From a virus (lineage: Duplodnaviria > Heunggongvirae > Uroviricota > Caudoviricetes), in IMG/VR virus record IMGVR_UViG_2675903495_000009: a stretch of 8,656 nucleotides of DNA; one strand, written 5' to 3'. This document shows positions 3,607 through 8,656 of this stretch, piece after piece. Position 1 is the first letter of the stretch. Each line of letters begins with the position of its first letter. The position numbers were made by a program, and so were the translations under genes. The notes beneath the pieces are model-generated. The model worked only from the letters and a program-made list of their open reading frames with translations, was not told the origin of the DNA and searched no databases.

Positions 3607-4354
3607 TTACCTAGTTACCTTTTTTAACTGCCGCTCAGCCCATGCTTCTTCAATATCAAACCGGGTCACCAGCGCATCATAAAATTTCTTAACTGTTTTT
3701 TCCCATGACGCGCGTGTTATCTGGTTTGTCACCTCGCATATAGCATTAAATGCCTCCGTTGATGGTAGTCTTTCATAGCCACGACCACCANNNNNNNNNN
3801 NNNNNNNNNNNNNNNNNNNNNNNNNNNNNNNNNNNNNNNNNNNNNNNNNNNNNNNNNNNNNNNNNNNNNNNNNNNNNNNNNNNNNNNNNNNNNNNNNNNN
3901 NNNNNNNNNNNNNNNNNNNNNNNNNNNNNNNNNNNNNNNNNNNNNNNNNNNNNNNNNNNNNNNNNNNNNNNNNNNNNNNNNNNNNNNNNNNNNNNNNNNN
4001 NNNNNNNNNNNNNNNNNNNNNNNNNNNNNNNNNNNNNNNNNNNNNNNNNNNNNNNNNNNNNNNNNNNNNNNCTACCGGTTTTATTTCTGCCGGAAGTTTT
4101 CTCAACGCCGCCACACGATCGCACCGACTGAGTGCATAATCTGCCAGTAATTCTGTTGCCCGCGCCCTGTCATTCATACTGATGCCCATTTTCCCCAGGA
4201 ACGCAGAAAACCCCATCTCAGCCCGATTCTGTGTCATGCCCTGCGCGGCCATCACATCAGTGATACTCAGCGCATCTTTTGACGTTGAGGCCGATGCATC
4301 GGTCAGGCAAGGGGATTTTGGGGAGTAGTATTTCGGTAAATCTTCCAGTTTCAT
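3607..4354 (-). CDS. Q: Late antiterminator Q, lambda-Q family (copy 2, adjacent to PR')
   Basis: N-terminus MKLEDLPKYYSPKSP...TDVMAAQGMTQNRAEMG resembles lambda Q (MRLESVAKFHSPKSP...TDVMAAMGMAQSQAGFG). C-terminal frame ...ASWEKTVKKFYDALVTRFDIEEAWAERQLKKVTR* resembles the lambda Q C-terminus. The interior 3791..4071 is masked. The span is 748 nt, not a multiple of 3, and about 38 codons longer than copy 1, so integrity is unverified. Confidence 0.7.
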
Positions 4355-4430: not shown

Positions 4431-4574
4431 NNNNNNNNNNNNNNNNNNNNNNNNNNNNNNNNNNNNNNNNNNNNNNNNNNNNNNNNNNNNNNNNNNNNNN
4501 NNNNNNNNNNNNNNNNNNNNNNNNNNNNNNNNNNNCACCGTCGGCGGATAAGGTAAAATAAACTCATGGCGCAT
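4351..4574 (-). pseudogene. rusA-like remnant (second copy): N-terminal and C-terminal segments but too short and out of frame
   Basis: N-terminus MRHEFILPYPPTV (RusA-like LPxPP start) and C-terminus ...RGQPVSGGRLGVKIYPIMHEEQVKK* (cf copy 1 ...RAQPVSGGRLGVKIYPIMLEGQVKK*). Only 224 nt span start to stop, including the 105-nt mask, versus about 360 nt for full RusA. Its TGA overlaps the Q2 ATG (ATGA). Depends on the mask length being true. Confidence 0.4.
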
Positions 4575-4816
4575 CAGCGCAGCACCTCCTGCACCAGTTT
4601 TTCAAACTTTCCGACTCTGGTTTCCAGCTCTGCCACACAGTCCACCAGCTCATCTACTGCTTTCTGTGCGCGATGCTTCGCCTGCATCAGTTCCCGAAGC
4701 GCGGGTACCATATCTTTACGGATAGCGTCTTTTGTTATGCCCGTTTTTTCGAGTTGTTCAGCATGACGCAGCATTTCCTGCGCGTGTTTACGCAATTGTT
4801 CAGGGGTAAAAGTCAT
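4574..4816 (-). CDS. Small hypothetical protein (80 aa from ATG at 4816), predicted helical and charged
   Basis: MTFTPEQLRKHAQEMLRHAEQLEKTG...AELETRVGKFEKLVQEVLR. The N-terminus resembles that of CDS 7868..8212. Its start overlaps the 3' end of Q1 by 17 nt. Confidence 0.45.
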   Translation of the reverse strand: MTFTPEQLRKHAQEMLRHAEQLEKTGITKDAIRKDMVPALRELMQAKHRAQKAVDELVDCVAELETRVGKFEKLVQEVLR

Positions 4817-5435
4817 TGTCTGGTTGTTCAAAAGAAACGCTCCATCTTACTGCTGTCAGTTCGTTTATTACTGTATCTGCGCGGATTGCCGGGCNNNNNN
4901 NNNNNNNNNNNNNNNNNNNNNNNNNNNNNNNNNNNNNNNNNNNNNNNNNNNNNNNNNNNNNNNNNNNNNNNNNNNNNNNNNNNNNNNNNNNNNNNNNNNN
5001 NNNNNNNNNNNNNNNNNNNNNNNNNNNNNNNNNNNNNNNNNNNNNNNNNNNNNNNNNNNNNNNNNNNNNNNNNNNNNNNNNNNNNNNNNNNNNNNNNNNN
5101 NNNNNNNNNNNNNNNNNNNNNNNNNNNNNNNNNNNNNNNNNNNNNNNNNNNNCTGCCGGTTTTATTTCTGCCGGGAGTTTTCTTAACGCCGCCACGCGAT
5201 CACACCGACTGAGTGCATATTCTGTCAGCAATTCTGTTGCCCGCTCTCTGTCATTCATACTAATGCCCATTTTCCCAAGGAACGCAGAAACCCCCATCTC
5301 AGCCCGATTCTGTGTCATGCCCTGCGCGGCCATCACATCAGTGATACTCAGCGCATCTTTCGACGTTGAGGCCGATGCATCAGTCAGGCCGGGGGATTTT
5401 GGGGAGTAGTATTTCGGTAAATCTTCCAGTTTCAT
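4800..5435 (-). CDS. Q: Late antiterminator Q, lambda-Q family (copy 1) with C-terminal extension
   Basis: 211 aa, in frame across the 258-nt mask. N-terminus about 95% identical to copy 2. The C-terminus ...IRADTVINELTAVRWSVSFEQPDNDFYP* runs about 16 aa past the position where lambda Q ends (...NILNAVTR*). Its ATG overlaps the rusA stop (ATGA). No PR'-like promoter follows it. Confidence 0.75.
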   Translation of the reverse strand: MKLEDLPKYYSPKSPGLTDASASTSKDALSITDVMAAQGMTQNRAEMGVSAFLGKMGISMNDRERATELLTEYALSRCDRVAALRKLPAEIKPAXXXXXXXXXXXXXXXXXXXXXXXXXXXXXXXXXXXXXXXXXXXXXXXXXXXXXXXXXXXXXXXXXXXXXXXXXXXXXXXXXXXXXXXPAIRADTVINELTAVRWSVSFEQPDNDFYP

Positions 5436-5713: not shown

Positions 5714-5939
5714 NNNNNNNNNNNNNNNNNNNNNNNNNNNNNNNNNNNNNNNNNNNNNNNNNNNNNNNNNNNNNNNNNNNNNNNNNNNNNNNNNNNNNNN
5801 NNNNNNNNNNNNNNNNNNNNNNNNNNNNNNNNNNNNNNNNNNNNNNNNNNNNNNNNNNNNNNNNNNNNNNNNNNNNNNNNNNNNNNNNNNNNNNNNNNNN
5901 NNNNNNNNNNNNNNNNNNNNNNNNNNNNNNNNNNNNNNN

Positions 5940-6609
5940 ACAAATCATCAGCCTTTGTTCCCATCCCTCCCAGTCCATGACCAATGATGTGATGCGGATC
6001 ATCTGCCTGATTGCCACACGTCATGCATTTCTGCGTTTTTACCCAGCGCGTGTATACAGGCATCTCTTCCCGTTGTGATTTCTGGCGCTGGAGATACTGA
6101 GCCGGTGACTCCGGATCAACGGCAATGCTGACCACCGTCTTTTCCTGTGGTGGGTTCTGTTGCTGGTGGACGTGAGGCAGTAACGCAATATTTTTTGTGC
6201 GCTGCTTCAGTATGCTGGTGGCTGTCTGCTCTCCCGGTATGATGTCGCTTTCACTGTACACAGAGCGAATTTTTTCCGCACGCAACCCCAGCGAACGACG
6301 TAATACCGCTTCCGGTAGCGCGTCCGCCACCTGATTGCGGACCGCCCACCAGGATAATTCAGCCAGAGATAATTCACGCTCCTGCGTACCGCTTATTGCG
6401 TGACCGATGACGTCAATCATCCATGCTGACAGGTTTTGATGAGCAAGTTGCTCGAGTGATTCGGATGTCTGGTCACGCAGCTGGTTGTCGCAGTGCCAGC
6501 ACAACACCATTGCGCCGGTACCATAACGGTGAATGACGGTTTCGCTGTGATGATAATCGCCGTGTGGCCACTGGCAGGATTTAATATGGCGCAACAGCCA
6601 GTCAGACAA
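5940..6609 (-). CDS. Prophage protein, DUF968/YdfU-like (recalled family), Cys/His-rich; both ends inside masks
   Basis: Visible 223 aa with CQWPHGDYHH...CWHCDNQ near the N-terminal side and CMTCGNQADDPHHIIGHGLGG near the C-terminal side, suggesting zinc-binding or HNH-like motifs. Gene order hok - short ORF - this gene - Q parallels hokD-rem-ydfU-quuQ in the K-12 Qin prophage. The track's TTG start at 6609 is probably not the true start. Confidence 0.5.
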
Positions 6610-6906
6610 TGCANNNNNNNNNNNNNNNNNNNNNNNNNNNNNNNNNNNNNNNNNNNNNNNNNNNNNNNNNNNNNNNNNNNNNNNNNNNNNNNNNNNNNNN
6701 NNNNNNNNNNNNNNNNNNNNNNNNNNNNNNNNNNNNNNNNNNNNNNNNNNNNNNNNNNNNNNNNNNNNNNNNNNNNNNNNNNNNNNNNNNNNNNNNNNNN
6801 NNNNNNNNNNNNNNNNNNNNNNNNNNNNNNNNNNACCTCCAGATCCGTTGCTGGAATGTGCGGGACGGACGCGTTGGCCGTTCGGAGTAAGGGAGCCTGA
6901 CGGAGA

Positions 6907-7191
6907 TTATCCAGTGACGGTAGTCGAGGCTAAGGGCTTTTTTAACCTCGCATCCGCGCCTGCGGTAACACTGAATGAGCCATTCGGCCTGTTCTTCAGT
7001 GCATGGGGGATGCTGGTACCAATCAGATTTAAATGCGTGAGAGCGCCGCCCGTGCCTGCTGGCAAAGACGGCTGAATTATCAGAATTGTGTAGTCTGGAA
7101 GGCAGTGGCTGACAATAGCGCCATTCTCAACGCGCACAGTATAGAGGCCATCTTCACTAAAAATTTCACGTAATTCTTCGATTTTCATCAA
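6907..7191 (-). CDS. Hypothetical small protein; only the first ~38 codons look protein-like (possible frameshifted gene)
   Basis: ATGATG start with AAGGA Shine-Dalgarno 8 nt upstream; MMKIEELREIFSEDGLYTVRVENGAIVSHCLPDYTILII then a low-complexity tail. An alternative frame is open and protein-like from about 7120 into the mask at 6834 but has no ATG/GTG/TTG. Confidence 0.3.
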   Translation of the reverse strand: MMKIEELREIFSEDGLYTVRVENGAIVSHCLPDYTILIIQPSLPAGTGGALTHLNLIGTSIPHALKNRPNGSFSVTAGADARLKKPLASTTVTG

Positions 7192-7516
7192 CAGAATCCT
7201 TCCAGATAAATAGCACTCCCCTGTTCGGGGTCCATCCCTCTTCTCCCTGCGCGCTACTTAAGTATTNNNNNNNNNNNNNNNNNNNNNNNNNNNNNNNNNN
7301 NNNNNNNNNNNNNNNNNNNNNNNNNNNNNNNNNNNNNNNNNNNNNNNNNNNNNNNNNNNNNNNNNNNNNNNNNNNNNNNNNNNNNNNNNNNNNNNNNNNN
7401 NNNNNNNNNNNNNNNNNNNNNNNNNNNNNNNNNNNNNNNNNNNNNNNNNNNNNNNNNNNNNNNNNNNNNNNNNNNNNNNNNNNNNNNNNNNNNNNNNNNN
7501 NNNNNNNNNNNNNNNN

Positions 7517-7579
7517 CACTATGACGGTTAAACAGATGACGATCAGGGCGATTAACATCGCCTTTTGCTGCTTCATAGC
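7517..7579 (-). CDS. hokD: Hok-family type I toxin, HokD/RelF-like (visible N-terminal 20 codons; rest inside mask 7267..7516)
   Basis: MKQQKAMLIALIVICLTVIV matches the HokD/RelF N-terminus as I recall it (MKQQKAMLIALIVICLTVIVTALVTRKDLCEV...). AAGGAG Shine-Dalgarno 9 nt upstream. Expected length about 50 aa, so the stop should fall near 7430 inside the mask. Confidence 0.8.
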
Positions 7580-7867
7580 CTGCTTCTCCTTGCCTTTCGG
7601 CACGTAAGAGGCTAACCTAGATTTGCCGTTCATAGATTGAGCCTCAGATTAATGTTAAGCGTCTTGCCGGACGCGTAATGTTAACTGGGGCTTTTCTCTA
7701 TCTGCCTTTTGGTGTTCATGCCTGAGACAGATAGCCTCAAGCACCCGCTGCAATTCTACTTAACTCTCCTTTTCCCGCAAACCGTTTTTATCCCCAGCGG
7801 CAAATCGAATACACCACCAGCGCCACCGCCATCGCAATTCCTACCGTTGTTAATGCTTCAGGCCAGG

Positions 7868-8386: not shown

Positions 8387-8617
8387 TTAACCCGCAGTGC
8401 TTTCAACTGATGAGGGGAACAAAATCTTTTCATCAAACCCTGCATTCATATCATGAACAGCAACACACCAATCCATCGACGAACGATTATCAAGAGCCTC
8501 CATGATTTCATCCATGCGGCGTAGGTCATACAGGTAAATGCTTTTATCGCCAATGGTGTAAAAGCCAATTTTTTTCGGTGATGGATGAGGTGTACTGGCA
8601 ATAGCGGACACTACCAT
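8387..8617 (-). CDS. Hypothetical protein (76 aa); first 10 codons lie in the right arm of the inverted repeat
   Basis: MVVSAIASTPHPSPKKIGFYTIGDKSIYLYDLRRMDEIMEALDNRSSMDWCVAVHDMNAGFDEKILFPSSVESTAG. No clear Shine-Dalgarno. An in-frame TAA four codons upstream rules out extension beyond the window. Confidence 0.35.
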   Translation of the reverse strand: MVVSAIASTPHPSPKKIGFYTIGDKSIYLYDLRRMDEIMEALDNRSSMDWCVAVHDMNAGFDEKILFPSSVESTAG

Positions 8618-8656
8618 TTGTTCTTTTTTTAAGCAGCCATCTGATGATATTTTTCC
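8586..8656. repeat. Right arm of the perfect 71-bp inverted repeat (partner 23..93)
   Basis: See partner entry; the match reaches the window edge. Confidence 0.8.

Follow-up and report, generated by a model that had tools for sequence, protein, structure and literature searches.

The window analysed here is a single stretch of DNA of 8,656 nt, and all positions given below are counted along its whole length. At the locus of interest, whose features all lie on the minus strand (Table 1), direct reading of the sequence identified an ORF that begins at TTG 7191 or ATG 7188 and runs to a TAA stop at 6909..6907, encoding 94 or 93 aa, respectively. The Shine-Dalgarno sequence in front of it, GGAAGGA, likewise precedes the intact rem gene in two related loci, L001 and L003. 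A second frame, at -1 relative to this ORF, is open for 97 codons, none of which is ATG, GTG or TTG. A preliminary description of the locus had reported a good start followed by a start-less open frame, and this two-frame arrangement was borne out, with its coordinates confirmed on the minus strand. A scan of 6835..7266 for promoters and terminators returned none on the coding strand. Elsewhere, three runs of N mask the window (5714-5939, 6614-6834 and 7267-7516), and these are not length-preserving: gauged against S. sonnei loci of 100% identity, their 226, 221 and 250 n stand for ~245, 242 and ~238 nt, respectively. Reading frames therefore cannot be counted across the masks, and the ORFs listed through them are artefacts.

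In Shigella sonnei, the block to which the locus belongs is a prophage remnant that adjoins ompW and is broken up by copies of IS1 and IS3-family elements. A perfect 71-nt inverted repeat is found at the window ends (23-93 and 8586-8656), and in the S. sonnei loci these repeats are the ends of two inverted IS3-family copies (IS600-like, 100 + 272 aa). The two copies bracket the whole block of hok, the truncated rem gene described below (rem'), DUF968, rusA, Q, methylase and tRNA genes, an arrangement that is composite-transposon-like or invertible. Within the block lie two tandem paralogues of antiterminator Q on the minus strand (4800-5435 and 3773-4354), which have near-identical N-termini (MKLEDLPKYYSPKSP...) and are separated by an 85-aa ORF at 4574-4831. 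Two genes of the Q family are likewise present in the S. sonnei locus L011, and L012-L016 have ~1 kb less DNA between rusA and the methylase gene. Gathering-level Rfam matches on the minus strand (7571-7746, 842-1031 and 1680-1926) comprise the sok antisense RNA, the sRNA STnc100 and three tRNA genes; the sok RNA marks the hokD locus just upstream of rem', and the tRNA genes lie downstream of the methylase gene.

Table 1. Features of the locus in the window and their intact counterparts in the related locus L001
Feature	Position	Strand	Remarks
Shine-Dalgarno sequence GGAAGGA	7197..7203	minus	8 nt 5' of the rem ATG; read from sequence
rem', first 88 nt of rem	7101..7188	minus	codons 1-29 plus 1 nt of codon 30; from L001 alignment
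Deletion junction	7100..7101	minus	250 bp of relatives (L001 3167..3416; L003 9061..9310) absent between these bases
'gene2, without first 11 nt, start codon and RBS	6833..7100	minus	66-aa core (residues 27-92) complete
Chimeric 93-aa ORF, rem' plus out-of-frame read of 'gene2	6907..7188	minus	'hypothetical protein' in S. sonnei annotation
Start-less open frame, 97 codons	6836..7126	minus	last 88 codons are gene2 codons 5-92
T_TTA_AAT heptamer	7027..7033	minus	rem' slippery phase; -1 enters gene2 frame at core start; judged incidental
A_AAA_AAG heptamer	6937..6943	minus	rem' slippery phase; judged incidental
rem, 86 aa	L001 3076..3336		DicA antirepressor family
gene2, 92 aa, phrog_1212	L001 3406..3684		'hypothetical protein'; TAA 1 nt before GTG of DUF968/ydfU

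A 250-bp deletion joins rem to the downstream gene

A megablast comparison of the 432 visible bases of the locus (7266..6835) with 5,426 complete E. coli genomes returned matches in 3,178 of them (853 full-length), and the top matches were all in two pieces that covered 682 nt of the subject. More than 850 of the complete E. coli genomes have intact loci in which this DNA is occupied by two distinct genes, rem and a gene for a 92-aa protein that we call gene2, and the records of the relatives annotate them as separate CDSs 69 nt apart. Direct alignment equated window 7266..7101 with L001 3001..3166 at 99.4% identity and window 7100..6835 with L001 3417..3682 at 97.4% identity, and the gap is exactly 250 bp with respect to each of L002 (Stx2a phage/PPompW prophage), L003 (pig ETEC UMNF18) and L004 (strain 131). 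What the window has lost is rem codons 31-86, the 69-nt spacer with the gene2 RBS (GGAGA) and nucleotides 1-11 of gene2. As a result, 88 nt of rem, counted from its ATG, are joined to nucleotide 12 of gene2, so that the rem frame reads gene2 in the +1 register and gene2 lies at -1 to rem'. The break had initially been placed at 7075..7090 and taken for a possible indel; the actual discontinuity lies between 7101 and 7100 and is a 250-bp deletion rather than the gain or loss of 1-2 bases. The first ~38 residues of the ORF had also been described as protein-like, and this proved too generous, the genuine part ending after residue 30 (ATG numbering). No direct repeats of at least 5 nt were detected within 20 nt of either deletion endpoint, and the inverted repeats at the deletion ends amount to just two 5-nt matches, too short to mean anything. 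We found no literature on this deletion in S. sonnei.

The left-hand remnant is readily recognized as Rem. Its closest known counterpart is encoded by the Qin cryptic prophage of E. coli K-12 (b1561; PF27490/phrog_340), downstream of hokD and upstream of ydfU/DUF968, and K-12 has the same hokD-rem-(gene2)-ydfU order. The window shares this placement, the same Shine-Dalgarno sequence and start, and a homologous stretch of 30 residues that includes the N-terminal segment M-x-IEELR-x-IF-x-EDGLY-x-V-x-VENG. It differs in keeping only ~30 of the ~86 residues (full-length Rem proteins have ~83-87 aa): the conserved C-terminal two-thirds (GAALI-FVD-..VTDGFILR..EFVTSL..LKE-GIKAGFSAF), the counterpart of L001 3167..3336, is deleted and replaced by 63 out-of-frame residues. 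In PHROGs searches, the 93-aa ORF matched phrog_340 over residues 1-29 only (E = 4.9e-7), and the best phrog_340 stretch of intact Rem covers residues 32-85. A precomputed PF27490:Rem match is on record for the exact 93-aa protein. The copies of Pfam and NCBIfam that we searched yielded no match to Rem, to gene2 or to either frame of the window, leaving PHROGs as the only informative collection. In a pairwise alignment that spans the N-terminal segment, K-12 Rem and the intact allele from the lineage of the window share 72% identity.

The right-hand remnant belongs to phrog_1212, a family of 92-aa proteins in Escherichia prophages and 66-aa distant relatives whose genes always lie just upstream of DUF968/ydfU. 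The start-less frame matches the PHROGs profile over positions 1-66 of 66 (E = 7e-35) and thus is not a chance open frame, and it conforms to the core pattern FK-x-x-W..H..CTEEQAEWLI..YRRRG..K.L..D...WIISVRLPYSERPPRPSRTFQQRIWR. Like other members it has the whole core, at 97% DNA identity, and the same stop; unlike them it lacks the start codon, the RBS and the first four codons, the start and the GGAGA-bearing spacer that would make gene2 an expressible gene both lying within the deleted 250 bp. The sole near-cognate codon that could serve as an alternative start upstream of the core is an in-frame CTG at 7105, which has no Shine-Dalgarno sequence. In the window allele, Thr also replaces a Pro whose conservation is at least 90%, a change at a nearly invariant site that hints at what may be relaxed constraint. 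In MG1655, an intact 92-aa phrog_1212 ORF is found at L018 3307..3585 on the minus strand (NC_000913.3 1644306..1644584), between rem (b1561) and ydfU (b1560); it is unannotated in the RefSeq record and annotated in most other E. coli genomes.

Several comparisons indicate which of the two frames is the conserved one. A database search with gene2 returned 158 clusters of homologues, mostly of 88-92 aa, and those with source names came from Escherichia or Shigella. All 27 aligned homologues start with Met (26 with Met-Ala), and the start-less frame aligns with them along its full length. A profile search extended to distant 66-aa relatives, whose initial MK.. falls exactly on residue 27/28 of the form found in Escherichia, and this argues that the 66-aa core is the functional unit; the window therefore encodes all of the functional unit without a start. 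In a comparison of six intact alleles with the window, the retained part has 19, 20 and 41 variable sites at gene2 codon positions 1, 2 and 3, respectively, a bias towards the third position. For five of these alleles, reading the differences from the window in the rem' frame produces a larger number of amino-acid changes than reading them in the gene2 frame; for the sixth, L011a, the two totals are equal. The 94-aa product is thus not conserved at full length, and the alternative frame is. Within gene2, the C-terminal 26 residues (67-92, WIISVRLPYSERPPRPSRTFQQRIWR; window ~6911-6836) are almost invariant, and alleles differ elsewhere by up to 30%. This segment lies directly 5' of the DUF968 start and may be under an extra constraint at the DNA or RNA level, for example through translational coupling, the context of the DUF968 RBS or a recombination boundary.

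The 'gene2 frame ends at a TAA corresponding to 6835..6833, the last two bases of which are masked in the window and were read from L012, an S. sonnei locus whose identity to the window is 100% to either side of the 6614..6834 mask. There, the GTG of DUF968 follows 1 nt after the TAA, in a different frame and with a GGAGG of its own, and DUF968 thus retains its GGAGG-GTG start. The proposal that the open frame runs on into DUF968 is therefore refuted by proxy, since the 100%-identical S. sonnei loci stop at this TAA 1 nt earlier.

Distribution of the junction and competing explanations

Some features of the junction could raise the suspicion of an artefact of sequencing, assembly or window preparation, with the 250 bp truly present in the organism: the length is a round number, the ends are blunt and without microhomology, and N-runs that are not length-true indicate that the window was edited. 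Moreover, none of the complete E. coli genomes or GTDB species representatives contains the junction. A 50-nt junction-centred probe, each half of which is below the megablast word length so that a match needs an intact junction, had no match among the 5,426 complete E. coli genomes, and a junction 26-mer was absent from the GTDB species representatives, a collection in which Shigella genomes are assumed to be filed under the E. coli species. The Shigella source accounts for the lack of matches in the E. coli collection, of which Shigella is not a part. The 26-mer was found in six IMG/VR contigs, and the 12 independent loci that were retrieved (six from IMG/VR and six from NCBI assemblies, some on multi-megabase contigs) are all 100% identical to the window over 432 nt. 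In addition, the exact 93-aa product occurs in 965 index blocks of public assemblies (NCBI and Logan assemblies of S. sonnei), and a cluster look-up placed the exact protein on 679 contigs, with names only in Shigella sonnei (FORC11_1990; A0A8B4CJ38_SHISO). With 12 independent assemblies in agreement and the product called on 679 contigs, an artefact is hardly conceivable, and the sequencing indel that had been offered as one explanation is refuted: the deletion is fixed in the S. sonnei lineage. Among the collections searched, the junction of GTCAGCCACTGCC with TTCCAGACTACAC is apparently a simple S. sonnei-specific marker. Two of the NCBI assemblies, L011 and L012, carry a called gene at 6001-6356 that starts at the rem ATG and ends at the gene2 stop. 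Its length, 356 nt, is not a multiple of 3, which suggests that the annotation pipeline of the submitters had already handled the two as a single frameshifted gene or pseudogene.

Another possibility is that the core of gene2 is rescued by programmed or fortuitous -1 frameshifting from rem', at either T_TTA_AAT or A_AAA_AAG, to yield a fusion of Rem(1-30), a linker and phrog_1212. The gene2 frame lies at exactly -1 to rem', and two X_XXY_YYZ heptamers are in the correct phase, slightly more than chance would give, at least two such heptamers arising by chance with P = 0.03 (3% of shuffles). T_TTA_AAT coincides precisely with the beginning of the autonomous 66-aa core, the point at which the distant homologues start with MK.., and A_AAA_AAG is the dnaX slippery motif. 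The arrangement is thus like a dnaX-type -1 frameshift in that both heptamers occupy the upstream 0-frame and the downstream frame is at -1. However, both heptamers pre-date the deletion. The intact L003 locus has the two of them in a phase that is never translated, and there the bases of T_TTA_AAT encode the invariant Phe27-Lys28 of gene2; A_AAA_AAG, which occurs in intact L001, L003 and L011a alike, stems from invariant Lys-Lys codons. Because the heptamers derive from conserved Phe-Lys and Lys-Lys codons, they are not a product of selection for slippage. Shifting to -1 is stimulated by an SD-like sequence 10-14 nt 5' of the slip site or by a hairpin or pseudoknot 3' of it, and dnaX-type sites combine an SD element with a hairpin; the window has no such stimulator. 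No SD-like element was seen at the stimulatory spacing, the sole GAGG being 2 nt upstream of A_AAA_AAG, and no RNA structure downstream of the heptamers was more stable than in shuffled sequences (z = -0.97 for T_TTA_AAT and +0.84 for A_AAA_AAG, with a further value of +0.61). The window's arrangement, moreover, is not conserved, the heptamers pre-existing out of phase in homologues, all of which express gene2 separately from its own start and none of which has an overlapping architecture, and a slip at A_AAA_AAG would recover just about the last third of the core. Given separate initiation in the homologues, heptamers older than the deletion and no stimulator, the programmed frameshift raised in the preliminary description is unsupported, and rescue by slippage of any kind seems to us very improbable. 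Equally improbable is an accidental -1 cassette in S. sonnei, in which some ribosomes would slip at T_TTA_AAT and make a low-level fusion of Rem(1-30), linker and core; if true, the translational signals of rem would still drive some low-level expression of the 'dead' gene2.

Two further readings accept the junction as real and differ from a simple deletion in how it arose or why it was kept. The joint might be the product of illegitimate recombination between two resident lambdoid prophages, with hok-rem' derived from one and 'gene2-DUF968 from the other. Identity to L001 and L003 is 99.4% and 94.5%, respectively, for the left arm and 97.4% to both for the right arm, which indicates mosaic ancestry, and S. 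sonnei and STEC genomes harbour several paralogous copies of the module. Nevertheless, the same 250 bp are missing with respect to three relatives and the genes otherwise run in collinear order; parsimony favours a single deletion, and mosaicism on either side of the junction could be older. We consider such a recombination event unlikely, and the functional outcome would be unchanged either way. It is also formally conceivable that the 93-aa chimera is a functional new protein kept by selection in S. sonnei, for example as a Rem N-terminal dominant-negative or decoy acting on DicA-type repressors. Its Shine-Dalgarno sequence and ATG are intact, it is perfectly conserved in the S. sonnei assemblies sampled, and S. 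sonnei genomes can hold a second, intact rem-gene2 module (L011 1222..1818). Identity among assemblies, however, is uninformative about constraint because S. sonnei is a recent clone, and the chimera has lost the most conserved part of Rem (residues 32-85), gained a tail that is an out-of-frame read of another gene, and belongs to a cluster with additional variants, shortened or lengthened, of 63, 85 and 118 aa. We accordingly give a selected function for the chimera very little weight.

Probable loss of rem and gene2 in a decaying prophage

The explanation that we favour, with a probability of roughly 0.9, is that the locus is a deletion pseudogene: a loss of 250 bp placed rem' out of frame onto 'gene2 and inactivated both genes within a decaying, IS-ridden prophage. 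The source would be a defective, IS-flanked lambdoid prophage of Shigella sonnei whose ancestral order was probably hokD - rem - gene2 (92 aa, phrog_1212) - DUF968/ydfU - rusA - Q. A single deletion would have taken out rem codons 31-86 together with the 69-nt spacer and the first 11 nt of gene2. Ribosomes loading at the intact Shine-Dalgarno sequence and ATG of rem would then enter gene2 in the +1 register and stop at 6907, producing a 93-aa chimera of 29-30 Rem residues and 63 nonsense residues, and the gene2 frame would persist as an open but start-less relic. The cell would thereby lose both the Rem antirepressor and the phrog_1212 protein. The 'frameshifted pseudogene' of the preliminary description was thus right in kind, in that this is a pseudogene and both frames are real coding sequence, and wrong in form, in that two genes have been joined by a 250-bp deletion and not one gene disrupted by a small indel. 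From the sequence, we infer that neither remnant is functional and that the event represents either neutral decay or prophage 'grounding'.

In K-12, Rem has been shown experimentally to be an antirepressor that frees dicBF from repression by DicA; by antagonising DicA, Rem expression increases the activity of dicBp 165-fold, and it leads to filamentation that depends on DicB/DicF (Ragunathan et al. 2023, PMC10448788). With only ~30 N-terminal residues left, the antirepressor activity of the window allele is almost certainly gone, judging from the residues that remain. The S. sonnei contig L011 carries two paralogous modules, at 1222-2866 and 6001-7416; the former comprises an intact rem (83 aa, K-12-like), gene2 and DUF968, and the latter is the deleted module of the window. 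Some S. sonnei strains may therefore retain Rem function in trans.

Pseudogene formation and prophage decay through IS expansion and deletions are characteristic of Shigella. The locus is like other products of this process in that it carries a lineage-fixed inactivating deletion in a remnant bracketed and interrupted by IS1 and IS3-family elements, and unlike them in that its junction has neither an IS nor microhomology. The phenomenon is an ordinary one, and both gene families are already known. The finding has little import beyond annotation: the 'hypothetical protein' of S. sonnei, in records such as FORC11_1990 and A0A8B4CJ38_SHISO, should be annotated as a rem/phrog_1212 deletion pseudogene and not as a protein. 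It nonetheless records the loss of Rem in this S. sonnei prophage remnant, a loss in line with the prophage 'grounding' and gene decay generally seen in Shigella.
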